DNA of 35,293 nucleotides. It comes from a virus. Lineage: Duplodnaviria > Heunggongvirae > Uroviricota > Caudoviricetes. The position numbers and the translations under genes were made by a program. This document shows, piece by piece, positions 1 to 35,293 of the stretch. The first letter of the stretch is position 1. Each line of letters begins with the position of its first letter. Under the pieces are notes generated by a model. It searched no databases. It saw only the letters and a program-made list of their open reading frames with translations, and was not told where the DNA came from. Location of the stretch: the IMG/VR virus record IMGVR_UViG_2778261341_000005, one strand, 5' to 3'.

Positions 1-1293
<1,293 letters not shown>

Positions 1294-1407
1294 TACCCAA
1301 TTTTTCTGAATCTAAAAAGCGCCTGCGGGTGGTTTTAGTGGGAGATTAACATATTGAAAATAAAGATTTTTTATTTTCATGTGTCCAGATAACGTCCATC
1401 TTTGAAA

Positions 1408-1450
1408 CAAAAAGCCCGCAGTTTTTTTACGCCGCGGGCTTTGTTTTTCT
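1408..1450. terminator. hairpin terminator downstream of serS, apparently bidirectional
   Basis: aaagcccgc ... gcgggcttt stem with A-run on the 5' side and tttgttttt on the 3' side; read on the minus strand it is the counterpart of the terminators that end hok units 2 and 3. Confidence 0.55.
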
Positions 1451-1533
1451 TTGTGACTTTTGTGTGAGGGTGCGACTTTCGACCGAACCTTTGGCAACCG
1501 GATAGCGGGGGCTTTCACCCCCGCTGCGGTTTC

Positions 1534-1674
1534 TTACGGTTTACACTGCAAGAACGCCGCAAATTCTGACCACATGATGTTAAGTCTGAACTCACACGGA
1601 GAACGGTGTATCATCCAGACGGTCAACAACATGGTTAAGCATAAAATGCTCACGATGATCGTTTTTTGCGGCAT
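1534..1674 (-). CDS. Hok/Gef-family type I toxin, copy 1 (46 aa)
   Basis: Minus-strand ATG with AAGGAG Shine-Dalgarno; product MPQKTIIVSILCLTMLLTVWMIHRSPCEFRLNIMWSEFAAFLQCKP: one TM helix then a C-E-F-R ... E-F-A-A-F block as in Hok/Gef. Six substitutions relative to copy 2 without frame disruption. Below the 60-aa track threshold. Confidence 0.7.
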   Translation of the reverse strand: MPQKTIIVSILCLTMLLTVWMIHRSPCEFRLNIMWSEFAAFLQCKP

Positions 1675-1715
1675 AGCGCTTGACTCCTTTTACAGGGAGG
1701 CGCTAACCTTCCACT

Positions 1716-1775
1716 TGTCTAGGGTAGGAAGGGTTAGGCCTCGGGTTAAACAAATGTTTTACTCGGGGCCTTTCC
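1716..1775 (+). ncRNA. putative Sok-like antisense RNA, unit 1 (boundaries approximate)
   Basis: Plus-strand TTGACT (1680-1685) and TAACCT (1704-1709) promoter-like hexamers antisense to the hok leader, then ggccucggg ... cucggggcc hairpin plus UUU. Confidence 0.3.
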
Positions 1776-1891
1776 ACATCCGGCCTTCAGGTATTCCTTC
1801 CAGCCGTCAGCCGAAAGGCACCCGCATGTAATTTACTGATTTCCCTTTGTGTGCGCAATGCTCAGTATTGAAGCTGTTGAGGGGAGACGGC

Positions 1892-1916
1892 AAAAAAAAG
1901 CCCGCATATTGCGGGC
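1892..1916 (-). terminator. intrinsic terminator ending the hok unit-2 transcript
   Basis: gcccgca-tat-tgcgggc hairpin preceded on the plus strand by A8, i.e. followed by U8 on the minus strand. Confidence 0.55.
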
Positions 1917-2006
1917 AATGAAGTCAGTACGCTAACCCAAAAGGGTGCCATATCAGCCGAACCCGGCAACCGGATAGCGGGGGGCTTTCACCCCCGCTGC
2001 GGTTTC

Positions 2007-2147
2007 TTACTGTTTACACTGCAAGAACGCCGCAAATTCTGACCACATGATGTTAAGCCTGAACTCACACGGTGAGTTGTGTATCATCCAGACAATCATC
2101 AAAATAGTTATGCATAAAATGCTCACTATGATCGTTTTTTGCGGCAT
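2007..2147 (-). CDS. Hok/Gef-family type I toxin, copy 2 (46 aa)
   Basis: Translated codon by codon from the sequence: MPQKTIIVSILCITILMIVWMIHNSPCEFRLNIMWSEFAAFLQCKQ; AAGGAG 10 nt upstream of ATG; TAA stop at 2007-2009. Confidence 0.72.
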   Translation of the reverse strand: MPQKTIIVSILCITILMIVWMIHNSPCEFRLNIMWSEFAAFLQCKQ

Positions 2148-2188
2148 AGCGCTTGACTCCTTTTACAGGGAGGCGCTAACCTTCCACT

Positions 2189-2248
2189 TGCTTAGGGTAG
2201 ATGGTCAGGGCCTCGGGTTAACATTAAAGTTGACTCCGGGGCCTTTCC
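2189..2248 (+). ncRNA. putative Sok-like antisense RNA, unit 2 (boundaries approximate)
   Basis: TTGACT 2153-2158, TAACCT 2177-2182; hairpin 2209-2243 (ggccucgg / ccggggcc with a G-U pair) followed by UUUCC. Confidence 0.3.
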
Positions 2249-2364
2249 ACATCCGGCCTTCAGGTATTCCTTCCAGTCGTCAGCCGAAAGGCACCCGCAT
2301 GTAATTTACTGATTTCCCTTTGTGTGCGCAATGCTCAGTATTGAAGCTGTTGAGGGGAGACGGC

Positions 2365-2389
2365 AAAAAAAAGCCCGCATATTGCGGGC
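2365..2389 (-). terminator. intrinsic terminator ending the hok unit-3 transcript
   Basis: Identical hairpin plus A8/T8 tract, 473 bp from the unit-2 copy. Confidence 0.55.
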
Positions 2390-2479
2390 AATGAAGTCAG
2401 TACGCTAACCCAAAAGGGTGCCATATCAGCCGAACCCGGCAACCGGATAGCGGGGGGCTTTCACCCCCGCTGCGGTTTC

Positions 2480-2620
2480 TTACTGTTTACACTGCAAGAA
2501 CGCCGCAAATTCTGACCACATGATGTTAAGCCTGAACTCACACGGTGAGTTGTGTATCATCCAGACAATCATCAAAATAGTTATGCATAAAATGCTCACT
2601 ATGATCGTTTTTTGCGGCAT
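2480..2620 (-). CDS. Hok/Gef-family type I toxin, copy 3 (46 aa)
   Basis: Nucleotide-identical to copy 2 over the ORF (shifted by 473 bp). Its upstream promoter differs from copies 1-2 but keeps TTGCAC-N17-TAAATT on the minus strand (~2776-2806). Confidence 0.68.
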   Translation of the reverse strand: MPQKTIIVSILCITILMIVWMIHNSPCEFRLNIMWSEFAAFLQCKQ

Positions 2621-2661
2621 AGCGCTTGACTCCTTTTACAGGGAGGCGCTAACCTTCCACT

Positions 2662-2718
2662 TGTCAGGTAGGAAGTGTCAGGGCCTCGGGTTAACGTTAG
2701 TTGACTCGGGGCCTTTTC
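2662..2718 (+). ncRNA. putative Sok-like antisense RNA, unit 3 (boundaries approximate)
   Basis: Same promoter hexamers as unit 2 shifted by 473 bp; hairpin 2682-2713 with a different, shorter loop than units 1-2. Confidence 0.28.
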
Positions 2719-2775
2719 ACATCCGGCCTTCAGGTATTCCTTCCAGCCGTCAGCCGAAAGGCACCCGCGCGTAAT

Positions 2776-3440
2776 TTACCTTTTACGTCCGTTACGTGCA
2801 ACGGATGACGTGGCTGTTTTTCCTTCCCCTTCGCCATCCTTTTTCGGAGCAGTTGTGCAAAAGTGTGCAAAAGTGATTTTTGCTGCCACTCCCCGCCAGG
2901 CCGCGCCAGTTCTGGCTTTCCTGATTTTTTCGTTTTCGTCGTCGGATCCTTTTTCAGATCTTCGATCGTGACGTAATTTTAAAAATCTCTTGTTATTCAG
3001 TGCATTAAATTTTTTCGGGATCCTCAGAAAGCCGGAGTTTTTGCACACTTTTGCAAAACCTTGCACAAAGTGCAAAACCATTCAGAAGGGAAAACCTCAG
3101 TAATGGCGCGCCCTGGCGGGGTGTTTTGCACCCATTTCGATTTGCAAAATTTATCGTACACAAATACCGGAGGCGTGTGCGGGGTAGCGCCGATTACGTC
3201 ACTTTACGCGTTACGTCGCCCCCGAAAATTTCCGGCCATTTGCGGCGATTCTGGGGCGCAGAAATCGTTTTCTGATGTCAGGGGATCGAATCGGGCCGGC
3301 GGGGTTATCTCTTCGTTACGTGGCGTTACGTGACGTTTTACGCGGGGATTACGTGGGGCGTTTCGTCCATCTTTTTTTCTGCTGCGGGTGGTTTTTTCGT
3401 GGTGGGTGATGTCCGGTGATGAATATTTTTTATTGTCGTG
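2776..3440. promoter_or_regulatory. non-coding block with operator-like and iteron-like repeat arrays (function unknown; possible att or regulatory region)
   Basis: No convincing ORF. Inverted copies of tgcaaaagtgtgcaaaa at ~2861-2884 and ~3040-3060 flank an AT-rich GATC-containing spacer; palindrome TTGCACaaaGTGCAA at 3061-3075; further TTGCA half-sites at ~3124 and ~3141. Direct (c)gTTACGTg repeats cluster at 2786-2806, 3193-3220 and 3314-3356. Confidence 0.35.
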
Positions 3441-3446
3441 GGAATA

Positions 3447-3476
3447 AAAAAGGCCACATTGCGCGGCCTGTTAAAA
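3447..3476 (-). terminator. intrinsic terminator at the end of the late/tail operon
   Basis: Minus-strand ggccgcgcaatgtggcc hairpin followed by ttttttatt, immediately after the stop of the 557-aa gene. Confidence 0.55.
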
Positions 3477-3483
3477 TGAATAA

Positions 3484-5157
3484 CTATTCGATTATTGGTG
3501 AATATTTATTTTTAAGCTGGCGGCACTCCTGAGCGACCTGGCTGAACTGTGCGGCCTGCGGAGACGTGCCCGTTTTGGGGTGGGTATGTGATGCTGTAAT
3601 ATCTGCCAGCTCTTCCACCACATCGGCAAGGTCCGTCAGCATGGTCAGTACATTAATGCCCTCGTTTCCCAGCTTCACCGTATCGCCAACCAGCTTCTGC
3701 GCCAGCGCAATACTGTGACGGACGCCCTTAATCTTTTCGGTAAGGCTGCCGCCCACGGTGTCCTGGGTGTCGCCTTCCACGTCGCGCTCACAGGTACCGG
3801 CAACCACCATCATGTGCCCGCCCGTGCTGATGCTGTAGTTCTCTTCAGTGATATGGGTGACCGCGCCAGCCTGAAGCGTGGATACGCCCAGGACGGTGGT
3901 TGTGTCGGTTGCCTGTATGGTGGTCTCCCGGCTGGTCAGGCTCCGCTTTTCCTCGTCTGCACTCACCACGCGCTCGCGTGATGTCTCCTGTATCCGCTGG
4001 TCTGTCTGGCGCTCCCAGTCTCCGGCGACCGTCACGCGCTGCGATACGCCGTCGCGCTGTTGCTGCAACTGCTCGCCCGGCTTCACGTCGGGCAGATTGT
4101 GGCCCTCTGCCATTATCTGGCGGATGAAGGGCTTATCCGCCCGGCCTTCCACAAATCCCACTTCCACCAGGGTTCCGGGCGGCGGGAACTGGAACATGCC
4201 GGACTCACTGCCCGCCATGGGAACGGGGAGGGGAACGGCGTTATAAACGGGCGTATCCGCTGCCGGGTTGCCGTTCTCGTCAAGCAGCTGGAGATTCACC
4301 GCGTAGCGGGGTCTGAACGGGTCGGCAATATTGCCCGCGCTGACGGCTTCGGTCGGCGCCTCAACACGTGCCAGTTTGGGCAGGTGAAGCCCTGATGCCA
4401 GTTCAGGGAAGGCCTTTTCAGCCTGGCGACGGAAAGGGGACTTCTGGAGGGGGGCGCCGGTGGCTTTATTGCGTGGTGTCCACGTGATGGTCATGTTGTC
4501 ATCTTCCAGCATGACCATCGTCAGGCGCTGACCGTTCACCTCCACACCCGGTCGCAGCGTCGGAATCATCGGGAGGGTCATACTGTGCCCGCCCGTTGAT
4601 GCCTGGCTGAACTCGTGCGGGATGGTGACGGGGCGACCGGAAAACATCCCCTGCGCGGCAGCAGCGGCCATAATGCCGCCGTCCGGTAACGGATGCCAGA
4701 TGTAATCCGGTACGGAGAAAATACGCCCCAGACTGGCCAGCAGTTCGTAGCCCGTGCCGCTGTGTGTGAAATGCGGAACGGGTCTGTCAGTGTAAGCCGC
4801 GTTGTCCGGCAGGATGATTTCCAGCCCGCTGGCCTCACTCAGCCACTGTGTGACCGTGCGCATTGTCGGGTGCTGAAATGAACAGGGGAAGGGGTGATCA
4901 AGGATCCCCGCCATTTCACGAATCAGAAGCCGCACCGAGCCGTTTTCAGCGGGCTGGCTGCGTTCAACGTATCCGGTAAACCAGCGCACCAGGTCGTTTC
5001 CGTATCCGATATCGAGACGAACGGGGCGCCCGGTGTAGTTCTGCTCTGTTCTGGCCGTGATAAATCCGCGTCCGCACGCGTTCAGCTCAAGCATGACGGA
5101 ACAACTGACCAGCTGAATGGTGTCGTTACCCAGTAACAGACGTTTAGTGGGGTTCAT
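3484..5157 (-). CDS. baseplate hub / central spike protein (gpV-like OB-fold; possibly a gpD-gpV, VgrG-like fusion)
   Basis: 557 aa; mid-protein segment VPLPVPMAGSESGMFQFPPPGTLVEVGFVEGRADKPFI resembles the gp5/gpV/VgrG OB-fold motif; C-terminal SHTHP near the tip (His-x-His apex as in spike proteins); last gene of the tail operon. Confidence 0.5.
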   Translation of the reverse strand: MNPTKRLLLGNDTIQLVSCSVMLELNACGRGFITARTEQNYTGRPVRLDIGYGNDLVRWFTGYVERSQPAENGSVRLLIREMAGILDHPFPCSFQHPTMRTVTQWLSEASGLEIILPDNAAYTDRPVPHFTHSGTGYELLASLGRIFSVPDYIWHPLPDGGIMAAAAAQGMFSGRPVTIPHEFSQASTGGHSMTLPMIPTLRPGVEVNGQRLTMVMLEDDNMTITWTPRNKATGAPLQKSPFRRQAEKAFPELASGLHLPKLARVEAPTEAVSAGNIADPFRPRYAVNLQLLDENGNPAADTPVYNAVPLPVPMAGSESGMFQFPPPGTLVEVGFVEGRADKPFIRQIMAEGHNLPDVKPGEQLQQQRDGVSQRVTVAGDWERQTDQRIQETSRERVVSADEEKRSLTSRETTIQATDTTTVLGVSTLQAGAVTHITEENYSISTGGHMMVVAGTCERDVEGDTQDTVGGSLTEKIKGVRHSIALAQKLVGDTVKLGNEGINVLTMLTDLADVVEELADITASHTHPKTGTSPQAAQFSQVAQECRQLKNKYSPIIE

Positions 5158-5159
5158 GG

Positions 5160-5702
5160 TTACTCCAGCGCATCATTGACGGGTTTGAGGACCTTTTCTT
5201 CGAACCAGGTCATTTTCTCCGGTGTTTCGTCGGCCACGGTCCCGCCTTTTGCGCCGGGCGTCTGCGGTGTCTGTTTACGGCTGCTGCCGGGGGTGGCGCG
5301 TGCCTGGCGTTTTTCCGGTACGCTTCGTCTTTCGCGTAATGTGAAGCTGACCTGCCAGGCGAGGCGGTCGGTCTGCTGCTGTGCGTCTATCTGCCCGGAG
5401 AATGTCCCTTCACGAAAGTTAATGGCGGCAGCGGTGGCGTTTGCGATACGGTAAACTTTCAGGGCACCGTCCCCGGTGGTGGCAGAGGCCAGCTGGAAAA
5501 TGCGCTGAAGGGCCCGCTCATTGTCAAAGGTGATCATCCCGGTTACGCGAAGCTCTTTGGCCTTGATGCCCTGCTCGGCGTTCGCGGTGCTCGATGTCTG
5601 ACCGGACTGGTCCTTTTCCTGGAACTGCATCGAGGGCGAAATAACCATGTTCTGCATGAAAATACCCTCACCATCAAGGGCGAGCAGTGCGGTCTGGCTC
5701 AT
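5160..5702 (-). CDS. hypothetical protein in tail operon (180 aa)
   Basis: Translationally coupled between the 241-aa gene and the spike gene; no motif recognised. Confidence 0.35.
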   Translation of the reverse strand: MSQTALLALDGEGIFMQNMVISPSMQFQEKDQSGQTSSTANAEQGIKAKELRVTGMITFDNERALQRIFQLASATTGDGALKVYRIANATAAAINFREGTFSGQIDAQQQTDRLAWQVSFTLRERRSVPEKRQARATPGSSRKQTPQTPGAKGGTVADETPEKMTWFEEKVLKPVNDALE

Positions 5703-6399
5703 GGATCATTTTCCCCAGTTCAGTTAATGAGTCTGCCGCCAGGAGTGCGGCCACAGTATGTACGGCGGTCGGTGCCGGGATATCCTTCACCATGGCCGCC
5801 GCTGCGGCGCGGTGATACCCCCGGTACTGAAATACCCAGGCCTGCGCCTTCTGTTCTGCCAGTGTTCTGATCCCCTCTTCCAGTCCGGCAAGTGCGCCAG
5901 CCCGTCTGCTGATAAAGCGGCTTATCTGGCGGCGAAGCCCTGCGGCATCCGGGCGTTGTGCTGCCAGCTGCCTGGCCTGTGCTGCACGGGCGGCGCTGAC
6001 TGCGTTGCGCATTGTGGCAACGGAAAGATGCACAGGTGCGGGCAGGGTGTCGGTGGTGATCGGGATTTGCATTTTGTCAGTGCTCAGACTGGCGGCAGCC
6101 TGTGCCATGCGCTGTGCCTGCGTGAATACCGGCACGGGCAGAACGGCGGTCAGTGCCGCCATTGACTGTATAAAAAGATCGTGGGTGTTTTCGGCAATCA
6201 TGATAATGGTCACGTCGCCGGATGCACGGCTTCCGGCCATTTTCCCGGCCAGCCAGTTTATGGCGTTCGGAGGGCTTAAATATACCCCCGATTCTTCATA
6301 TCGTCCCAGCCCGTAAGTCCACGGTGTGACGGGGATGACGGAACAGCTCAGCGGGGGCATGTCAGCGCTGACGCTGATTGTTTTTCTTGTCCACGTCAT
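5674..6399 (-). CDS. hypothetical protein in tail operon (241 aa, Ala-rich)
   Basis: GGAGG Shine-Dalgarno 5 nt upstream of ATG at 6399; starts 11 nt after the fibre-assembly stop; no motif recognised. Confidence 0.35.
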   Translation of the reverse strand: MTWTRKTISVSADMPPLSCSVIPVTPWTYGLGRYEESGVYLSPPNAINWLAGKMAGSRASGDVTIIMIAENTHDLFIQSMAALTAVLPVPVFTQAQRMAQAAASLSTDKMQIPITTDTLPAPVHLSVATMRNAVSAARAAQARQLAAQRPDAAGLRRQISRFISRRAGALAGLEEGIRTLAEQKAQAWVFQYRGYHRAAAAAMVKDIPAPTAVHTVAALLAADSLTELGKMIHEPDRTARP

Positions 6400-7007: not shown

Positions 7008-9067
7008 TATGCAAGCCTCACGATGTAGTTAAATGCGATGTTTTTAACGGTGTTTTCGGCATTACCGGTGGGGTTAATGGTCAGGCCGTGACCATGTGAA
7101 CCCAGTGCGATCGTGTGGGCGTGTTCGCCAATGCCTACAGGGTGCGTGTGTGCCGGAAAGTTAACCGTCAGGCTTGCCCCTGAACCCGGCCCGTATGCGG
7201 TCCAGTCACCGCTGCCTTCCGGTGACGCGGTGGCGGTTCTCAGTGCTATGCTTGCAGAGCCTGAACCCGCGCTTCCTGTTGTTTTTGTGCCGTAATTGAA
7301 GGATGAGGTCGTTTTCGTGCCAAGGTTAGTGTTTGAGACGCTCCCCCCGTGGGTGTGGGATTTGATACCGTCCTGCTCCTGTGACAATACCGCACGACCG
7401 CTGGCGGGTTTCCCCTTGATTGTCCAGCCGCGCATATCCGGGATGCGACCGTCCGGACAGGCTTTTGCCAGCAGGGGGTATTGCGCTTTATCGAATGTCT
7501 GCCCCACCATGATGGCGTAACCGTCAGGCGGGGTGTCTGACGGCCACGGAAAAGGAATACCAGCCGGTAATGCCTCAGTTGCAGGCAGTGCGCCGATGTC
7601 CTGTGGTGTGGGTTTGTTTTTATCCGTGTAAGTGCGGTACCAGGTGGTTTTTCTTCCCCGATCCAGTATCACCCCGGTAAATTGTGCCCGGTGTTCTTTT
7701 GTGGCCGGATCTGAATCTTCCAGACCTGTGGTGATCCTGACTATTCCACCGATGAGTTCGCCAAACACTTCAATCAGGCAGCCACCCAGGCAGATATCGC
7801 CATACCCCGTGTCAGTAAGCACGCTGTGCTGTGACAGTGAAATATTGGCCCTTAATACCCAGCTCCCCGTTCTGAATGCACCGCGCTCATTCAGCCATTC
7901 CACGAACTGTTCTGTTGTCCAGCGTTGCCCTGCTTTACCCACGTATCCGTCAGCATCATAAACCCGGGGAGCACCGATGTTGATAATAAACAATTCCTTG
8001 TTGGGGATGTCCTCACCATTGCGGTTTTTCGCAAGCCGACCATCGGCGTTGTCCATGGCGATCTTTATCGCTTTTGGCGTGGCTGCCTGTGTTTCTGATG
8101 TACTGGTGGTGGCGCTGCTTAACTGTGTGAAGCCCTTTTCTTTCAGCGTTGCGTCCGGGTGATTACGTGATCTCTCGTGTTTTTTCAGGGCGTCCAGACT
8201 GCGGCGCTCTTCCGGGGTTCCTCTGGGGCGGAGGTCAGTCACGTTGCCGTCTTCATCAATTTCAGCGATGGCACAAAAATATTGCTGAATGCCGTCCCTC
8301 GGATACGTTTTCCGTAAACGCTCTTCCGTAACGTCCGGGTCGGCTGTTATGATTTCGTGCTCTGTCGCCCATTCACTGGTGAGCGTGCCGGTCCACCACA
8401 CATTCAGCCAGATACGGGACGGGGAGGTGGGCGTGACCATTGGTGTGTCTTCGGTCAGCTCTGCGCGTAGCCCCTCCACGTAACCCACCCCTTTGTTGAC
8501 TGTCCAGGTTTCGCCTTTCTTAACCAGCCACCCGTCATCAAAAAAAGTTGCCTTCCCGTAGATATCGACGTTTTCGCGGCGCTGGCGTTCGTCCATGGAT
8601 GCCAGGCGTGCCGTGAAGTCTATCTGCCAGGTCTGCGCCGGGGTGGTGATACCAGTGGCTTCTTTCGCACCGCTGTACTCCATGAGCATGGAACGAACCA
8701 GCACATTACCTTCGTTACCGTTGTGGGTTCTGATTTTTTTCTGTGTGGGTGCATGAACAATCATGGCCAGCGTGCTGGTTGCTTTGCTGACCAGTCCCAC
8801 CCAGTTAAATTCAAAATCACCCAGCTCTGCCCCCAGGGTGACCGAATAAACCACGGCATTCTCATTCACCACGCCGGTTTTACCAACGGCCTGGCGGTGA
8901 ACAATCTGATCTTCAGGCGGCAGGATTTCGTCGGGGGATACCGGCGTTTCCAGGTTGAGGTCCGGGACGTTTGCAAAAATAAACTCATCCAGCACAACGG
9001 GGGTGCCTTCCACCGCCTGCTGTGCCTTGAGCCGGATAAAGGCGCTGGTAATTACAGATTTCGCCAT
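7007..9067 (-). CDS. tail fibre protein (gpH-like)
   Basis: 686 aa; contains [35 protein letters not shown], closely matching the conserved motif of P2 H and related fibres; C-terminal Gly/Ser/His-rich domain with repeated HxH. Confidence 0.85.
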
Positions 9068-9089: not shown

Positions 9090-9638
9090 TCACTCTGCCC
9101 TGGCCGTCCAGCAGATATACTCCCCTTCGTATGCGCCATAATGGATGATGAAGGGGTTAAGGGTTTCCACCTCAAAACGGTAACGGCGGCATGTCCTGCC
9201 ATATTTGCGGATGATCTCCAGAAGAAGATCGCTGTTGTCGGCTATCTGGCTGTCTGTCACCCGCACCAGGATCACATCCCAGTCCACGCCGGGCTGGCGC
9301 TCGAGTAACTCCACGTAGCCGATGCCCAGCCGTTCAAAAATGGCGATAAAGCCCGCCACCTCGCCAGCCTCCTGTGCATTGATGAAGGCGTAACTGATGC
9401 GGCGGCGGTAGATCTCCGTGGGTTCCCCTTTAAAGCGGGTGATGTCCCGCTCCCATGCCAGCAAATCAAGTACAGGCTCTGCACATGTCATGGGGTCAAA
9501 CTGGCGCACGGGCCAGGTGATCCATTCCCATACGCGGGACCAGAAAGCCTGCGCGGCCCGCAGCAGTTTGTCGGGTTCCCCCCTGTCCATCCAGGAGGGC
9601 AGTTTCAGCGAGCGAAGCCGCTGCAAAAAGTTATTCAA
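9090..9638 (-). CDS. baseplate protein (P2 gpI-like)
   Basis: 182 aa directly upstream of the fibre gene; W..P..C...L.LLAW motif pattern of the P2 tail protein I family. Confidence 0.6.
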   Translation of the reverse strand: MNNFLQRLRSLKLPSWMDRGEPDKLLRAAQAFWSRVWEWITWPVRQFDPMTCAEPVLDLLAWERDITRFKGEPTEIYRRRISYAFINAQEAGEVAGFIAIFERLGIGYVELLERQPGVDWDVILVRVTDSQIADNSDLLLEIIRKYGRTCRRYRFEVETLNPFIIHYGAYEGEYICWTARAE

Positions 9639-10815
9639 TGACCACCTCCACTGTCAGGGATTCGAGCCGTGGCACGGCCAGATCGCTGATGATGTCTTCC
9701 AGTGAAAACTGAACCGAAGCCACCATCGGGAAGGTCTGATGAATTTCCTTGCCCAGCGTGGAAAACGAAAAGCGCGAATAGGGCCAGACTTTTTTCACGT
9801 TAAAGCGGGCGTTCTCCCTGAAAGCGCAGCGTATCAGGTCGTCGATATCCTGTTTCAGCCCTTCCGCGCCGTCCGGTGGCAGGGTGGTTGAACTTCTGAT
9901 GTATACGGTGACCTCCAGACGGTGACGCGTCTCCGGCATGGCGAAACACTGCAAATCATCCCCGTGTCCGTGGTGCCCCTCTTCGTTGATGTAGCGGTTG
10001 ACTGCTTCAATGAAAGGGGCAGAGGCCTCGCCGCTGTCCAGTAACAGGTAGGCGTTGGCCGTTCCCGGTCCTCTCGGGGCGTCGTGCTGAAAGTAGATCC
10101 GGTCGATGCTCAGGCCCGCCACGCTGGCAATAAGTCCCCGGTAGACGGCGTCCGTGTGGTAACTGCTCACGAGGTTAAACTGGTTGCGTATTCTGTCGCG
10201 CAGTTCGTCGTCGCTTTCCTCATCGGCACCCGGTACGGTCAGCCAGTCCTCCCGGTTCACCACGGATGCAATGCCGGGAATGGCAACGGGAAGGATACGG
10301 AAGTACCCCGGCGCGAGGTTGTGCCCGCTGCCTTCGGTGGTGGCTTCCACGGGAACGGATGCGCCGCTTTTACCGCTGCTGATAAGCGTTTCCTCCGTGA
10401 CGGCCATGCTGTGTATCACGCCGTTGATTCTGGCGGTCTGGACGATGGTCCCTTCGGGGATGAGGACGTCATCATTTGCCCTGGTTTTGGCAAACCAGAT
10501 CACGCCACGGGCCTTACTGGCCGGTTTTGGGGTGATGTTGACGTCGTGCGCATGAAGCAGAAGAAGTGACCGGTCAGCCGTGGCGACAAACATACCGGGC
10601 AGCACAACGTCAACCAGTGCATCACGCAGCCACTGAACGGGTCGTATGACAATGGTCAGAATGAGCCGCCAGAAGGGACTCATGGGCGAGGTGTTGGTGA
10701 TGAGTCCGGTTTTCTGTACATCCTCATGAAAGAGGGTGGCGATCTCTTCTTCTGTTTCCGGCATACCGCTTTCACGGAATACCTGATTAAAATCAACGTC
10801 CGGTTTCCCTTTCAT
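9631..10815 (-). CDS. baseplate protein (gpJ-like)
   Basis: 394 aa; position between the gp25-like and gpI-like genes as in P2 W-J-I; size-compatible. Confidence 0.5.
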   Translation of the reverse strand: MKGKPDVDFNQVFRESGMPETEEEIATLFHEDVQKTGLITNTSPMSPFWRLILTIVIRPVQWLRDALVDVVLPGMFVATADRSLLLLHAHDVNITPKPASKARGVIWFAKTRANDDVLIPEGTIVQTARINGVIHSMAVTEETLISSGKSGASVPVEATTEGSGHNLAPGYFRILPVAIPGIASVVNREDWLTVPGADEESDDELRDRIRNQFNLVSSYHTDAVYRGLIASVAGLSIDRIYFQHDAPRGPGTANAYLLLDSGEASAPFIEAVNRYINEEGHHGHGDDLQCFAMPETRHRLEVTVYIRSSTTLPPDGAEGLKQDIDDLIRCAFRENARFNVKKVWPYSRFSFSTLGKEIHQTFPMVASVQFSLEDIISDLAVPRLESLTVEVVIE

Positions 10816-11164
10816 AGTTCACCCTGGTGTTTATGCGTCCAAAATCCTGTGTCTCTGCTGTCACATGCAGCCTGCCCGGTGCCTCTTCGTTAATGAACAC
10901 CGTCCCCGGAACCAGCCGTTCATCATCCTCAACCAGGAGGATAAGCCGGGTAATGATGTCGCTGCGCAGCGTCGGGCTGCGTTCGCCGATAAGCAGGGCG
11001 GCGATCCCGCTTTCGATAATGCTGTGCACCACGTCCTGGCCGATGCTGACCCGGTTATCACATCGCTGTGGCTCGTTTCCGCTGTTCAGCGTAAAACTGC
11101 CGTCAGTGATAAGCAGGTCGATGTAAAGCGATGGCGTGTTCATCCCGCGTAAAGCTCCGTCCAT
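10793..11164 (-). CDS. baseplate wedge protein (gp25 / gpW-like), tentative
   Basis: 123 aa; N-terminal RGMN and IGERSP (GER motif) reminiscent of gp25-like proteins; overlaps tape-measure 3' end and gpJ-like 5' end. Confidence 0.4.
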   Translation of the reverse strand: MDGALRGMNTPSLYIDLLITDGSFTLNSGNEPQRCDNRVSIGQDVVHSIIESGIAALLIGERSPTLRSDIITRLILLVEDDERLVPGTVFINEEAPGRLHVTAETQDFGRINTRVNYERETGR

Positions 11165-13326
11165 TCATCCAGTTGCCCCGGCGTCATCGGGTTCTGCGTG
11201 TTGATTGTCAGATTGCCGAACGTCCGGCTGTTGTCGATACGGGTTGAGGTGTCCGTGCGTATCTGGTTGCGTATGCCTCCGGGTGGCAGCTCTGCGCTGA
11301 TGCGGTTGCCTGCCAGTGCCGGGACGGCGGTTTCTGCAATCTGCGGAGGTACGGTGCTGCCCGTTGCGCCCCGCGTCATGGTGTTCACCTGCTCCGTGGG
11401 CTTCATGTCGATACTGATACCGGGGATTTTGTTCAGCTTTTCCGCAAGCCAGTTCCACGTCCGGTTAAACGAGTTTTTAATGACGTTCCATAAGTCCCCG
11501 AAAACGTTACCGATGATCCCCGCCATTTTCCGGAAGGATTCGACCGGGGCGGTCGGGTCAAATGCAGCCACCACGTCCTGCCACCCTCTGATGACGATGG
11601 TGAAGATGTCGATCAGGTCTCTTATTGCGCCGATCACCATTTCCAGCGGGGTAGAAATCAGGCTGACTGCGGCGGCCACCAGGCGTCCGCATGTTTCCCC
11701 GGCACGGGTGACGCTGTTCATCTGTCCCGTGGTCAGCTGTACCGGTGTAAACAGATCGGAGAAGGCACCGAACAGGGTTTTTATGCCCTGCCATACCGGG
11801 GCCAGCGCCCGTGCAATGTCGCCGAACGCGGCAGTCACCGGGCTCATGGCGTCCAGTGCGCCGGTAAAACCATCAATAAAGCCGCGAATAAAGGCTTTGA
11901 TGGGCTGCCAGAACTTAATGGCTACCACCACCAGAGCGGCGATGGCGGCAACAACCAGGAGGACCGGGGCGCCCATGGTCAGAAACGACACGCCCGCCAG
12001 ACGCGCGGCAAGACTGGTGGCAATGATGACGCTGCGTACTTTTGTGAGTGCGAGCGTGTACAGACCCCAGGCTGCCCTGGCGCCCTTTATGATGGCCTTA
12101 TGGCCTTCCATGATGAAGCTGAACACACCCAGCACGATGTTCGTGACCGCACCGGCTGCGCCCAGCGCCAGCATGGTCAGCGTGATGTAACCCAGCCAGC
12201 GGGCGATGTTCGGGAACATGTTCAGCCAGCGCACGAACGTCGCGCCGATATCGGCAAAACGGCCAGCCAGTGGTGCGAGAATGGGGTAGAGGGCGTTACC
12301 GATGGCGGCCCGGATGTTGTAGAAGGAGGCCACAAGGCGGTCCCACGGGTCGGTCATGGCTTCCGCCATTTCCGTGGCACGCTTCATGCCGTCATTACGC
12401 CCCAGCGCTGATATGCTCCGGTTAAGCATTTCCTGCTGTCCCCAGAGTTTTTTAATCACGTCCGCACCACTGCCGAAGGCGTCATCCAGCGCCTGTTGTG
12501 CCGCCACGTTACCCTCAATGTTCCTGCCGAACCTCGCCTGCAGACGGTCGAGGATGTCACCCATGGGTAAAATCTTCCCGGTGGCATCGACGAAACTCAT
12601 CCCCATTTTTTGTGCGGCAGCGGGGGCACTGCGCAGGAACTCCTCATAGATGCCTGATGCCTCGGTACCCATGGTCCGTGACAGGGTGCCCAGTATGGCA
12701 AACTGCTCTGCCATGCTGACGCCAAAATCCGCGCCAGCGTTTTTGGTGCCCTCAATAAGCTCCTGCATGGTGCTCATTTCCACGCCGAACTGCTGAACCA
12801 TCCACGCGGTTTTACCAGCCAGATCTTCAGCAAAACCCACGGCACCCATGGCAGAAAACTCACTGCGGAAACGGGCACCCATGGCGGCAAGGTAAGTACT
12901 CGCCTCTTCACTGCTGACGCGGGCAGCCACGGCCAGGGTACTGGTTGCTGCCGTCACACGGGGTAAATCCCCGTCGCTCAGCCCGTCCAGTGCGCCGCGA
13001 ATATGCCATGCGGAACGGATGATCTCCGTGGAAGACTGACCGAATGCGGTCCCCAGTTTCATGGCCTGCGTGGTGAGGGCGGTCAGCGCCTGCGCTCCGA
13101 CGCCTTTGGCCTCAAGCTCGCTCAGCGCCTTCTGCATCTCCCACGCCGGATCCATTGCGGCGCGGATACCTTCAGCCACACCCCACAGTCCGGCCACACC
13201 CACACCGATACGCGCGAACGCGCCCTGCGAGCGTTCGGCGAATCCCGTCACGGATTCCTGAACCTGCCGCAGCGGGCGGGTAAGCTGGTCTGTCAGATTG
13301 ATAATGAAATCCAGCTGGCTGGCCAT
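11140..13326 (-). CDS. tail tape measure protein
   Basis: 728 aa, Ala/Gly-rich with internal hydrophobic segments; preceded by a chaperone gene with a frameshift site. Confidence 0.85.
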   Translation of the reverse strand: MASQLDFIINLTDQLTRPLRQVQESVTGFAERSQGAFARIGVGVAGLWGVAEGIRAAMDPAWEMQKALSELEAKGVGAQALTALTTQAMKLGTAFGQSSTEIIRSAWHIRGALDGLSDGDLPRVTAATSTLAVAARVSSEEASTYLAAMGARFRSEFSAMGAVGFAEDLAGKTAWMVQQFGVEMSTMQELIEGTKNAGADFGVSMAEQFAILGTLSRTMGTEASGIYEEFLRSAPAAAQKMGMSFVDATGKILPMGDILDRLQARFGRNIEGNVAAQQALDDAFGSGADVIKKLWGQQEMLNRSISALGRNDGMKRATEMAEAMTDPWDRLVASFYNIRAAIGNALYPILAPLAGRFADIGATFVRWLNMFPNIARWLGYITLTMLALGAAGAVTNIVLGVFSFIMEGHKAIIKGARAAWGLYTLALTKVRSVIIATSLAARLAGVSFLTMGAPVLLVVAAIAALVVVAIKFWQPIKAFIRGFIDGFTGALDAMSPVTAAFGDIARALAPVWQGIKTLFGAFSDLFTPVQLTTGQMNSVTRAGETCGRLVAAAVSLISTPLEMVIGAIRDLIDIFTIVIRGWQDVVAAFDPTAPVESFRKMAGIIGNVFGDLWNVIKNSFNRTWNWLAEKLNKIPGISIDMKPTEQVNTMTRGATGSTVPPQIAETAVPALAGNRISAELPPGGIRNQIRTDTSTRIDNSRTFGNLTINTQNPMTPGQLDEWTELYAG

Positions 13327-24544: not shown

Positions 24545-25108
24545 TCATGAAAAATCTGGTACTGAATACAGTGGTATAACCTGAAATCCGTTACACTTCC
24601 AGGACTGCGCTATATCTGGTGACTGCGTGATGGCGGGTAACGGGATTCTGTCATTACAGGTCACCCATGCCTTTGGCTCAGAGGTCAGGATCATTAACGC
24701 AATGCGGTAACTTTGTAGCCTGGCCTCATCATCCTCTGAAAGCCCGAACGGGATATCTGATTTTACCTCATCCATCTGTTCGATTCTCTTCCCTAAAAAT
24801 ACCGCGAGGAAGTTTCTGCTCTCCTGGCATAAGGCCATTTCCGGTATTGTGTACAGTGATTCAACATGTCGGCCTGCATGGTTCCAGGCTTTCACAGCGA
24901 CATCGTGTCGTGTAATGTCGAAAGAAAGGCTTTCTTTGCCCGGAGTGGGTGATCTCCATGCTACCGCCTTTGCGGTAAGTGCCTCCAGTGCAATACGGTG
25001 TACGCATAAGAGCATGAGGGTGTCATCGTCAGGAATCGCCAGTGTGTTTATTTTTTTCAAGCTGATCAATTTCATGGAGGTTATATTTTTTAGTTGTCTT
25101 CTTTTCAT
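24545..25108 (-). CDS. hypothetical protein (187 aa), lower-GC cargo gene
   Basis: Start placed at ATG 25106-25108 with AGGA Shine-Dalgarno (track ORF extends to 25240 over the upstream small gene); no motif recognised. Confidence 0.45.
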   Translation of the reverse strand: MKRRQLKNITSMKLISLKKINTLAIPDDDTLMLLCVHRIALEALTAKAVAWRSPTPGKESLSFDITRHDVAVKAWNHAGRHVESLYTIPEMALCQESRNFLAVFLGKRIEQMDEVKSDIPFGLSEDDEARLQSYRIALMILTSEPKAWVTCNDRIPLPAITQSPDIAQSWKCNGFQVIPLYSVPDFS

Positions 25109-25125
25109 ACGTTTTTTCCTTTCAG

Positions 25126-25290
25126 TCACGAGAGCAACCAGATAACCGCAACGGTTGCCGCATAAATTCTGGCGATAAAGCCCGGTGTGAAGTGGCGAAA
25201 CGGGTTTTCCCACGTCAGGAATGCCATTAAAGCAATCCATGCAATGGTAAAAATCAGCGCGCCCTTAACGGCGATAAACAGTTCGTTCAT
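25126..25290 (-). CDS. small membrane protein (54 aa, two predicted TM helices)
   Basis: AAGGAG 8 nt upstream of ATG 25288-25290; product MNELFIAVKGALIFTIAWIALMAFLTWENPFRHFTPGFIARIYAATVAVIWLLS; below track threshold. Confidence 0.4.
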   Translation of the reverse strand: MNELFIAVKGALIFTIAWIALMAFLTWENPFRHFTPGFIARIYAATVAVIWLLS

Positions 25291-34231: not shown

Positions 34232-34300
34232 CGTTACACATCGAGCGGGTTTCATCCCGCAGGGAGTGTTTGGTTAATTTATCCGTTGGAGGGGCTAATC

Positions 34301-35293
34301 ATGTCGATTAAGCAACTCAAAGACGGACGTTATAAGGTTGATGTAAGGCCACAAGGGACGGAAGGAAAGCGGATTCGTAAGATTTTTACCCTGAAGTCAA
34401 AGGCGCAGGAGTTTGAAAGGTATGTTTTGCAGAATTTTCATGATAAGCCATGGCAGGCTAAGCCAGCAGATCAGCGTCGGTTATCCGAACTGATAGAGGC
34501 CTGGTGGTTGCTTGATGGTCGTAACCAGGATTACGGGGATACCTACAGGGTCAGACTGGAAAAGATAAACCGTGAGATGGGTGATCCTCGTGCCAGTCAG
34601 ATGACGCGAAAATTTATGCTCGGGTACCGGTCCGACAAATTACAGGCCGGGTTAATGCCTTCCAGCATTAACCGCGATTTGTGTGCCTTGTCTGCAATGT
34701 TCAGCTCGCTGATTGAGGGTGAGGTGTTCCATAACGAAAACCCGGTTCGGGGAATACGTAAGCTGAAAGTCAGGAACACAGAGATGGCCTTTCTTTCAGA
34801 TGAGGAGATTGAACGACTGCTTGAACGACTCGATGGAGATGCGCGGCGTGTTGCCATTCTGTGTCTTTCCACGGGGGCAAGGTGGGGCGAAGCAGCTGGT
34901 TTACGTGGGGAACATATTGTAGGTAACCGCGTGATGTTCTTTAACACCAAGAACGGAAAATCTCGCGCCGTTCCCGTTTCTGATGCGGTACTTGCGTTAA
35001 TTAAAACCCGCAGAACCGGATTGTTGTACCAGGCTGATTACCTCAGATTTCGGGAGATCCTTCAGGAGGTGAAGCCGGACTTGCCGAAAGGGCAGGCCAC
35101 CCATGTCATGCGTCATACATTCGCTACACATTTCATGATGAATGGCGGAAATATCGTTACGCTACAACGAATCCTGGGCCATGCCACGATTCAACAAACG
35201 ATGACGTATGCGCATTTTTCGCCGGACTTTTTACAGGATGCAATCAGCTTTAATCCGCTGGCTGAAAGTGTCCATAAACTGTCCATCGATTAG
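34301..35293 (+). CDS. int: tyrosine integrase (P2 Int family)
   Basis: MSIKQLKDGRYKVDVRPQGTEGKRIRKIF ... ILCLSTGARWGEAAGL ... HVMRHTFATHFMMNGGNIVTLQRILGH ... YAHFSP matches P2 Int blocks including the catalytic R..H..R..Y region; stop is the last codon of the window. Confidence 0.93.
   Translation: MSIKQLKDGRYKVDVRPQGTEGKRIRKIFTLKSKAQEFERYVLQNFHDKPWQAKPADQRRLSELIEAWWLLDGRNQDYGDTYRVRLEKINREMGDPRASQMTRKFMLGYRSDKLQAGLMPSSINRDLCALSAMFSSLIEGEVFHNENPVRGIRKLKVRNTEMAFLSDEEIERLLERLDGDARRVAILCLSTGARWGEAAGLRGEHIVGNRVMFFNTKNGKSRAVPVSDAVLALIKTRRTGLLYQADYLRFREILQEVKPDLPKGQATHVMRHTFATHFMMNGGNIVTLQRILGHATIQQTMTYAHFSPDFLQDAISFNPLAESVHKLSID

Follow-up and report, generated by a model that had tools for sequence, protein, structure and literature searches.

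The window analysed here (the whole stretch of DNA, 35,293 nucleotides long) opens with the host gene serS and runs through a prophage, and the question raised by its first kilobases is where the host chromosome stops and the phage begins. The open reading frame list leaves 2190 bp (1294-3483) between the serS stop and the last phage ORF, and a hok array and a block of short repeats fill this gap; both are real by Tandem Repeats Finder, Pfam and motif counts, as the original prediction had described them. That prediction took the gap for an intergenic region much larger than expected and held that the window could not tell whether the hok units and the repeat block are host or prophage DNA. 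The size stands, but to call the gap an oversized intergenic region is incorrect, since functional elements of the phage (att arm, hok/sok cargo and cos) make up most of it, and the question of origin, which indeed could not be decided from the window, was answered with outside genomes. Our main reading, to which we assign a probability of about 0.82, is that an intact temperate phage of ~34 kb has its left end at 1294-3483, made up of an att arm, hok/sok cargo and a cos region. The phage is a member of the P2/HP1 family (Peduoviridae) with an HP1-type layout, and the segment is an ordinary prophage end, whose att arm, hok array and cos are all known kinds of element. The features are collected in Table 1, and the segment is described below from its phage side toward serS.

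Table 1. Features of the segment between serS and the last phage gene, with the genes that bound the prophage (window coordinates).
Feature	Position	Strand	Basis
serS (serine-tRNA ligase), host gene	1..1293	+	ORF; serS annotation in every matching E. coli genome
Host DNA: serS 3' untranslated region and 5' half of the serS intrinsic terminator (AAAAAGCGCCTGCGGG)	1294..1329	+	K-12 identity
att core/crossover region CCTGCGGG (attL)	1322..1329		Duplicated at the int-side end in NZ_AP045168.1
Phage att arm beside the core, with tandem arm-type repeat GTGTCCAGATAACGTCCATC (1381-1400)	1330..1408		Also present with the phage at the zapB site
GC-rich hairpin with flanking A and T runs, hok unit 1 3'-end terminator	1409..1448		Sequence
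Tandem hok/sok array, 473-bp unit, 2.7 copies, 94% matches	1493..2779	-	Tandem Repeats Finder
hok unit 1, 46 aa	1534..1674	-	PF01848 27.8 bits (cut-off 22); phrog_251 E 4.6e-19
hok unit 2, 46 aa	2007..2147	-	Pfam PF01848 29.4 bits
hok unit 3, 46 aa, peptide identical to unit 2	2480..2620	-	ORF list, alignment
hok mRNA leader/sok region, units 1, 2 and 3	1663..1823, 2136..2296, 2609..2766	-	Rfam RF01794
Repeat block, putative non-coding cos (DNA packaging) region	2780..3450		Homologous to SW5 and ESSI-2 genome-end regions
TGCAAA/TTTGCA cluster on the att side of cosN, candidate cosB-like terminase-binding sites	3039..3149		Motif positions
Predicted cosN, 16-nt cohesive-end sequence GGCGTGTGCGGGGTAG	3172..3187		Alignment with phiO18P, ESSI-2, SW5, 186 and P2
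TTACG(T/C) repeats on the tail-gene side of cosN	3194..3354 (3194, 3204, 3211, 3316, 3326, 3338, 3349)		
Tail operon intrinsic terminator	3451..3469	-	
Last phage gene, baseplate protein, HP1 orf35 homologue	3484..5157	-	tblastn, PHROG
Tyrosine integrase, other prophage end	34298..35293	+	Pfam PF24624, PF00589

The repeat block and its relation to known cos sites

The 557-aa gene that bounds the segment on the phage side matches phrog_2258 (E 1e-241) and, by tblastn, is 38% identical over its full length to orf35 of HP1 and HP2 and 66% identical to its counterparts in SI7 and SW5. In HP1, HP2, F108, phiO18P, SW5 and ESSI-2, the orf35 homologue is the last gene before the genome end. A cohesive end of 16 nt is annotated in phiO18P (GGCGGGAGCGGATGAG), and it aligns with 3172-3187 of the window, with 11 of 16 positions identical. 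The ESSI-2 record carries 15 nt common to both of its ends, 13 of which are identical to the window motif, and the break of the SW5 record falls within the homologous motif, although the ends of these two records could in principle be assembly break points. The cos sites of 186 and P2 share GGCGTG(-)GCGGGG with the window motif, and the 5' part of the 186 site is identical to it at 12 of 13 positions. In 100 of 120 IMG/VR contigs, the motif lies 104-1578 nt (median 191) from the end of the orf35-like gene, and in the window the distance is 296 nt. These comparisons establish that the cos motif is homologous to those of related phages and conserved in position; on the same alignments, terminase is predicted to cut at GGCGTGTGCGGGGTAG, which would leave 16-nt cohesive ends and make the block an active cos.

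Short repeats flank the predicted cosN on both sides. The 704 bp from 2780 to 3483 hold 8 of the 15 window occurrences of TGCAAAA (expected 0.3) and 8 of the 21 of TTACGT (expected 0.42). An inverted partial copy of the TGCAAA/TTTGCA cluster lies at 2852-2914; ESSI-2-type phages have TGAAAA-type motifs at the positions of the window TGCAAA cluster, and in phiO18P TTTTTTGCAAAAG lies ~25 nt away from the cos end. On the tail-gene side, SW5 and L004 carry TTCCGT at the first positions of the TTACG(T/C) repeats, which may be a second set of packaging-protein sites. Between phage subtypes, the flanking repeats keep their positions and change in sequence, and we propose that the TGCAAA and TTACGT repeats around cosN could be the sites at which packaging proteins assemble. 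A long-range inverted repeat within the block (2888-2914 with 3098-3124) was dropped because its signal across 110 related loci was only weakly above that of shuffled controls.

The cos of P2 itself gave little by direct search. Its 19-nt sequence was not found in the window with up to 3 mismatches, the position that cos occupies in P2 (downstream of portal and ogr) holds just a bidirectional terminator, and when the P2 cos junction was compared with the window by BLAST, the sole match was the 13-mer GCGGGGTGTTTTG at 3116-3128 (E 0.21), which is suggestive and not significant alone.

Many short direct and inverted repeats are also a property of iterons and centromere-like sites, and hok/sok modules are classically plasmid-borne, so that the block could be read as an iteron-type origin, a partition site or an array bound by a regulatory protein, or, given that RefSeq annotates an ORF within it, as coding sequence (2776-3081). 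An origin or partition site is at odds with the setting, however: no rep or par gene adjoins the block, whose neighbours are hok and the baseplate gene, the annotated ori nick site of P2 lies inside replication gene A, and a search of the plasmid collection gave no match on a genuine plasmid, the single match being a 1.2-Mb record. The phage collection yielded no nucleotide match to the block either, its matches being to the hok units only. As for coding sequence, we rejected the ORF because it has no Pfam or PHROG match, and the RefSeq 'hypothetical protein' is unlikely to be a gene. SW5 and L004 lack a counterpart of the left part of the block (2780-3038), and this favours a function other than cos, but the conserved core has homologues at the genome ends, mapped or recorded, of related phages and keeps a fixed position beside the orf35-like gene. 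We consider it unlikely that the block is anything other than a cos region, and it can now be labelled as the predicted cos site of this coliphage lineage.

The hok array and the copies of the phage in other strains

Next to the block, three 46-aa ORFs belong to the Hok/Gef family (PF01848, above the cut-off of 22) and form the centre of a module that spans about 1409-2779. The array DNA is 78-87% identical to Stx-phage hok loci, and homology with these loci, as with the phage at the prpB site, starts at the GC-rich hairpin at the serS-proximal end of the module, which is probably also a back-up terminator for serS read-through. Upstream of each hok, the sok family RF01794 scored 51.3, 44 and 35.8 bits (E 5.8e-10, 5.1e-8 and 7.7e-6 for units 1, 2 and 3), all below the gathering score of 59, and nothing exceeded the gathering score in an Rfam scan of 1200-3600. 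Alignment of the units shows that the leader stem-loop differs among the three. In the predicted fold of the unit-2 transcript (1938-2298, minus strand, with the transcript ends assumed), 5' GGGUGCC pairs with 3' GGCACCC, at -150 kcal/mol and z = -6.95. Each unit has an intact hok, its own terminator and an mRNA whose two ends are predicted to pair and close the molecule. A search for a mok frame gave no hok-strand ORF of 20 aa or more across a hok start, a promoter scan of the region gave no consensus sigma-70 sites, and PADLOC returned no defence-system match for Hok or for four accessory ORFs. Other strains carry one to three copies of the unit, a range that unequal recombination between units would explain. 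We suggest that the array may act against cells that have lost the prophage, by killing them, or against other phages, by abortive infection, or in both ways.

The same phage occupies other chromosomal sites. In NZ_AP042483.1, it lies at the zapB-rraA site with 99.4% identity and with homology from window position 1314, and in other strains further copies with hok units and repeat block adjoin prpB and ytfP, the prpB-site copy being homologous from 1409 onward. Among 5426 complete genomes, just 12 have the repeat block, and in each it adjoins the last tail gene of this phage. The phage represents a coliphage lineage that is rare in E. coli and has no sequenced isolate. At serS itself, the lysogen NZ_AP045168.1 is 99.4% identical over window 1-5200, and the annotation of its prophage covers head, tail, lysis, replication and integration genes in full, together with one partial ash-family pseudogene; large ORFs throughout the window match this gene set.

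The sok scores below threshold and the missing mok frame, together with the disruption of tail-fibre genes in some related copies, would suit a decaying prophage remnant whose att, cos and hok units no longer work. We regard such decay as quite improbable, since all three hok ORFs are intact, 99.4%-identical copies at two chromosomal sites imply recent movement, and large ORFs throughout the window match the full gene set of the NZ_AP045168.1 prophage.

The att core within the serS terminator

K-12 MG1655 and the window are identical up to and including 1329; beyond this point K-12 diverges and runs straight on to dmsA. This prophage-free serS locus, the comparison that the original prediction had proposed, lacks the segment, and the expectation that a prophage boundary lies here therefore survives. 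Of 5426 complete E. coli genomes, 5075 have the empty serS-dmsA junction intact, and about 350 have it interrupted. As had been noted, the integrase gene lies at the opposite end, and the window ends at the int stop codon, so that the other att site falls outside it. We therefore read the far site from the near-identical NZ_AP045168.1, in place of the window's own genome. On the int side, its sequence is ...AAACCTCCTGCGGG|CGCTTTTTTTGTCTCC and then leads on to dmsA; the direct repeat that it shares with the segment is CCTGCGGG, 89 bp past the int stop, and this core is also found at attL of the zapB site. The 8-bp core has five further chance occurrences within the window, and the junction was therefore rightly said not to be findable from the window alone.

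Taking together the identity with K-12 up to 1329, the core at the int end and the presence of the phage at other sites, we conclude that the only host DNA in the gap is 1294-1329 and that 1330-3483 is phage DNA. The suggestion that the hok array and/or the repeat block belong to the host (as a strain-specific island or as what remains of an older element, with the prophage boundary near 3483), for which one could cite the hok loci of E. coli chromosomes and the repeated use of a junction that could collect remnants, is already contradicted and hardly credible, since K-12 and the genomes with an uninterrupted junction lack the segment, the segment moves with the phage to zapB (from 1314 or 1330) and to prpB (from 1409), and the core is duplicated at the int end. 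The annotation is thereby settled with the prophage starting at 1330, instead of 3484.

The core sits inside the serS terminator hairpin, for which folding gave -16.3 kcal/mol in the native form and -11.2 in the hybrid attL version; no tRNA or tmRNA gene that could serve as an integration target was found in the window. Tyrosine-integrase recombination at CCTGCGGG would insert the phage into this transcription terminator hairpin, excision would be expected to restore an attB reading AAAAAGCGCCTGCGGGCGCTTTTTTT, and the attP junction is predicted as AAACCTCCTGCGGGTGGTTTT.

The window itself held one hint at the junction, a 20-nt GTCCA repeat pair that lies beside the core and recurs at 35268-35287 (GTGTCCATAAACTGTCCATC), inside the 3' end of int. 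By analogy with the annotated arm sites of the P2 record, the GTCCA repeats on both arms are candidate arm-type sites for Int binding. An arm related to 1330-1408 is also present in a P2-tail-type prophage at serS.

Comparison with known phages and cargo exchange

Nucleotide comparison gave no match to an isolated phage, SI7 coming closest (9% coverage, 73% identity), and the nearest relatives found are Salmonella SI7 and SW5 (genus Irrigatiovirus) and Cronobacter ESSI-2 (genus Seongnamvirus). With the HP1-like Peduoviridae (HP1, HP2 and phiO18P), the phage shares the order last baseplate gene (orf35 homologue), cos, attP and int, a homologous cohesive-end motif, P2-type capsid and terminase genes, Ogr, Cox and a tyrosine integrase. 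The cos sites of HP1 and HP2 adjoin attP (Lavigne et al. 2009, PMC2771037), and in the HP1 record 192 bp lie between orf35 and cos and 250 bp between cos and attP, with int following. Where HP1 has 250 bp between cos and attP, however, the present phage has a 1.3-kb hok/sok array, which may have been inserted into an HP1-type layout. It further differs from HP1-like phages in that its early, int and att region is shared with P2-tail-type prophages, the Int of the one at serS being 94% identical, and from phiO18P in that its target is a terminator hairpin, whereas phiO18P has a tRNA-Leu-like sequence annotated beside int.

The cos motif has the 5' half of its cohesive end in common with 186 (GGCGTGGCGGGG), through GGCGTG(T)GCGGGG, and, like the P2 cos, which shares the 13-mer described above, it has TGCA-containing repeats beside it. 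In contrast to both P2 and 186, the site lies beside attP and not beside the portal gene, and the predicted overhang is 16 nt, compared with 19 nt. The hok units resemble the R1 parB and Stx-phage ('MokW-like') hok loci in the Hok/Gef peptide (PF01848, phrog_251), the sok-like leader and the predicted closure of the mRNA by 5'-3' pairing. They differ from these loci in that there are three tandem copies, varying in number by strain, in that no mok frame was detected, in the divergence of the leader stem-loop across the three units and in their location between cos and attP. General knowledge of prophage ends, hok/sok systems and cos sites is unchanged by these results.

In a related phage, the place of the hok array is taken by a gene for AbiH, an abortive-infection protein. 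Tentatively, and as a possibility that we hold to be less probable than not, the cos-attP interval of HP1-type phages might be a hotspot of cargo exchange like those of P2 and P4, used here for three diverged hok/sok units, perhaps with Sok specificities that do not cross-react, as anti-phage or anti-loss cargo that is swapped together with int-att. If so, the hok array and the int-att module would be exchanged between phages with HP1-type and P2-type tails. The lineage also gives a small example of modular phage evolution, in which one int-att-hok module is joined to either kind of tail genes and the cargo beside cos (hok array or AbiH) differs. In the cos-adjacent hotspots of P2 and P4 (PMC9122126), variable accessory cargo likewise lies directly beside cos. 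The P2 hotspot is at a cos that adjoins the portal gene, whereas here cos adjoins attP, and the cargo here is a type I toxin-antitoxin system and not a PADLOC-listed defence system.

Placement of the prophage boundary beside serS

The original prediction had flagged the stretch between serS and the last phage gene as a prophage boundary that could not be decided from the window alone. ORF positions gave the same 2190-bp gap (1294-3483), the hok array and repeat block said to fill it proved real (by TRF, Pfam, PHROG and motif counts), and the integrase was indeed at the far end, where the window stops at the int stop codon. In prophage-free K-12 MG1655, a 238-bp interval separates serS from dmsA. 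The window agrees base for base with K-12 up to and including position 1329 (...AAAAAGCGCCTGCGGG), after which K-12 goes on CGCTTTTTTTGTCTCC and the window TGGTTTTAGTGGG. Neither K-12 nor the 5426 complete E. coli genomes searched yielded a prophage-free locus with the gap segment intact, and a 121-bp probe spanning the K-12 junction was intact in 5075 of these genomes. For the far prophage end, we took advantage of NZ_AP045168.1, a lysogen with a 99.4% match to window 1-5200 whose prophage spans serS to dmsA; 89 bp beyond its int stop, ...GTTAAACCTCCTGCGGG is joined to CGCTTTTTTTGTCTCC and the sequence runs on into dmsA. Because K-12 diverges after 1329 and the int-end junction carries the same 8 bases, the direct repeat is the 8-mer CCTGCGGG (1322-1329), and host DNA in the gap is limited to 1294-1329. 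By chance the window contains five other copies of this 8-mer, so the junction could not be found from the window alone; the earlier observation is confirmed, and the boundary question is now answered.

Within the intrinsic terminator of serS, the att core occupies the loop and 3' stem; the native hairpin has a predicted fold of -16.3 kcal/mol. The hybrid attL hairpin (predicted, -11.2 kcal/mol) has a shorter stem and keeps the U tract, and a strong hairpin follows it at 1409-1448. Both sites into which this integrase has integrated, serS-dmsA and zapB-rraA, are intrinsic-terminator hairpins (window 1322-1329; ~7995-8020 and ~5000-5030 in comparison loci L002 and L010, respectively), and at both the phage arm brings a replacement 3' stem half and T tract.

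NZ_AP042483.1 carries the same phage (99.4% identity) in the zapB-rraA interval, at a site that is likewise a terminator hairpin (GGCACC...GGTGCC); its core is imperfect, reading CCTGCGGG at one end but CCTTGCGG at the other. Homology starts at window 1314, so this copy includes the att arm, three hok units, and the repeat block. More copies of the phage type sit beside prpB and ytfP, each with one to three hok units and the repeat block, which was present in only 12 of the 5426 complete genomes and always adjoined the same last tail gene. The presence of near-identical copies at two different chromosomal positions speaks for recent activity, against the possibility that the att, hok and cos elements are inert. 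That the hok array and repeat block are a host island is contradicted by the K-12 junction, which lacks them, and by their travelling with the phage. By these comparisons, the segment after 1329 is phage DNA.

Feature coordinates in the window
Feature	Position	Strand	Remarks
serS	1-1293		window start
GTGTCCAGATAACGTCCATC arm repeat	1381-1400		att arm
hok array	1493-2779		473-bp tandem unit, 2.7 copies, 94% matches (Tandem Repeats Finder)
three intact 46-aa ORFs	1534-1674, 2007-2147, 2480-2620	minus	Pfam Hok/Gef above curated cut-off; PHROG 251
first large phage ORF	3484-5157	minus	
GTGTCCATAAACTGTCCATC, near-copy of GTGTCCAGATAACGTCCATC	35268-35287		inside 3' end of int

The att arm and the hok array

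Positions 1330-1408 are specific to the integration module: the whole of 1330-1500 was present in only 11 genomes, and ~570 others match only from 1409 on, where the sequence is hok-locus DNA common to Stx phages. Similar GTCCAC pairs flank the int gene in ESSI-2 and SW5, and the annotated Int P' arm site of P2 likewise overlaps the end of int; we infer that the two arm repeats are arm-type integrase sites. At the same serS site, the prophage of strain LZSFT34 has tail genes of P2 type (D, sheath, tube etc.), a related arm, two hok units adjoining ogr, and an integrase 94% identical to that of the window, so the int-att-hok module is common to phages with different tail modules. The prophage at L014 (NZ_CP132728.1, serS site), whose tail genes are of P2 type, has the Cox, repressor, att arm and hok units of the window phage as well as its integrase (94%), and shows tail-module exchange, cos position included, between otherwise similar phages. 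This prophage additionally has TumE-family and ParE-like toxin genes.

Each hok unit consists of a Hok ORF, a leader region matching Rfam sok (RF01794; E 6e-10 to 8e-6, below the gathering score), and a terminator; a mok-like frame overlapping the start of hok was not detected in any of them. The predicted unit-2 transcript (1938-2298, minus) folds at -150 kcal/mol (z = -6.95), with 5' GGGUGCC pairing with 3' GGCACCC, and such an end-paired closed fold is typical of hok mRNAs. Stx phage hok loci share 78-87% identity with the window units. The peptide is identical in units 2 and 3 and has several substitutions in unit 1. No two units have the same leader stem-loop (GGCCCCGAG...loop...CCCGAGGCC; ~1720-1790, 2195-2260 and 2665-2730, minus; columns 201-250 of the unit alignment): it varies in its loop and 3' flank, and outside it the aligned units are nearly identical. 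Each unit may have a distinct Sok-target specificity. Different strains carry one, two or three copies, which is what unequal recombination between 473-bp repeats would produce. By analogy with known hok/sok systems, the array would kill prophage-losing cells, exclude other phages, or both.

The repeat block and the predicted cos site

Within 2780-3483 (704 bp) lie 8 of the window's 15 copies of TGCAAAA (0.3 expected) and 8 of its 21 copies of TTACGT (0.42 expected), together with several inverted repeats. The 557-aa protein of the adjoining phage gene is a baseplate protein (phrog_2258) and a full-length homologue of HP1 orf35, and in HP1, HP2, F108, phiO18P, SW5 and ESSI-2 the orf35 homologue is the last gene before the record end. 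The HP1 record runs from orf35 (end 32163) through the genome end (32355) to cosL (1-9), attP (251-694) and int; cos sites of HP1 and HP2 adjoin attP, whereas P2 has its cos downstream of the portal gene (Lavigne et al. 2009, PMC2771037). We found no P2-type cos in the window, where the P2 position (downstream of portal, ogr) holds a terminator only.

We joined the record ends of ESSI-2 and SW5 and aligned them with the window. GCGGGTGCGGTGTAG stands at each end of ESSI-2, and the SW5 record breaks within the same motif (between GGCGGGTGC and GCGGTGTAG), which corresponds to window 3172-3187, GGCGTGTGCGGGGTAG. The reverse complement of the 16-nt cohesive end annotated in phiO18P (GGCGGGAGCGGATGAG) aligns with it, and the first 12 nt of 186 cos (GGCGTGGCGGGG) match it with one gap. 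The related Vibrio phage PV94 has 16-nt 5' overhangs, shown experimentally (PMC3986222). At least 120 viral contigs in IMG/VR contain a degenerate form of the motif, and 100 of 120 have the end of an orf35-like gene on the matching side and strand, at a median distance of 191 nt (296 nt in the window).

On the att side, the window, SW5 and L004 (a prophage beside yegQ) have TGCAAA-type motifs where the consensus of 108 distinct relatives has TGAAAA-type repeats; phiO18P has TTTTTTGCAAAAG ~25 nt from its cos end, and P2 has TGCA-containing repeats beside its cos. Repeats that keep their place while changing sequence by subtype would fit recognition sites of a co-evolving packaging protein. On the tail-gene side, TTACG(T/C) repeats stand where SW5 has TTCCGT. 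The left part of the block (2780-3038), in which the TGCAAA and CCCCGCCAGG elements recur as a partial copy in inverted orientation, has no counterpart in SW5, and a conservation test of the long inverted repeat had a weak outcome.

The block could instead be coding, since RefSeq places a hypothetical ORF there, but this ORF has no family match and spans the TGCAAA repeats. The protein in question, WP_224083737.1 (window 2776-3081, minus; 43864-44154 in locus L001), is probably a false gene call. A plasmid-type iteron or partition site is unlikely, as no rep or par gene is adjacent and the sole 'plasmid' match is a 1.2-Mb record. That E. coli record, CP061270.1 (PLSDB), carries this prophage end and is almost certainly a piece of chromosome misfiled as a plasmid. 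We conclude that the repeat block is, as judged from motif and position, the phage's predicted cos region.

Other variable loci and relation to known phages

The interval from the ogr terminator to the replication region contains a 231-aa ORF (24545-25240, minus) with no Pfam or PADLOC match and only weak matches to PHROGs of unknown function. The NZ_AP045168.1 prophage has different small ORFs here, which makes the interval a second variable cargo locus, in the place that tin and old occupy in P2. In three related prophage copies (L015, L016 and L017, ~9150-11200), the annotation splits the tail-fibre gene into two partial pseudogene pieces ~500 bp apart, a segment that may be invertible or mis-assembled.

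The phage is rare in E. coli and has no close sequenced isolate (best, SI7, 9% coverage at 73% identity); it is a new HP1-like member of Peduoviridae with P2/186-like early genes. Every part is of a known kind: a tyrosine-integrase att site, hok/sok type I toxin-antitoxin cargo, and a cos in the HP1 position. The one mildly interesting point is the cargo beside cos. The related phage at yegQ (L004, NZ_CP027388.1), which has the same tail end and a cos core 72% similar, carries an AbiH abortive-infection gene (4766-5731) in its cos-att interval in place of the hok array, and the defence hotspots of P2 and P4 directly adjoin cos (Rousset et al. 2022, PMC9122126).
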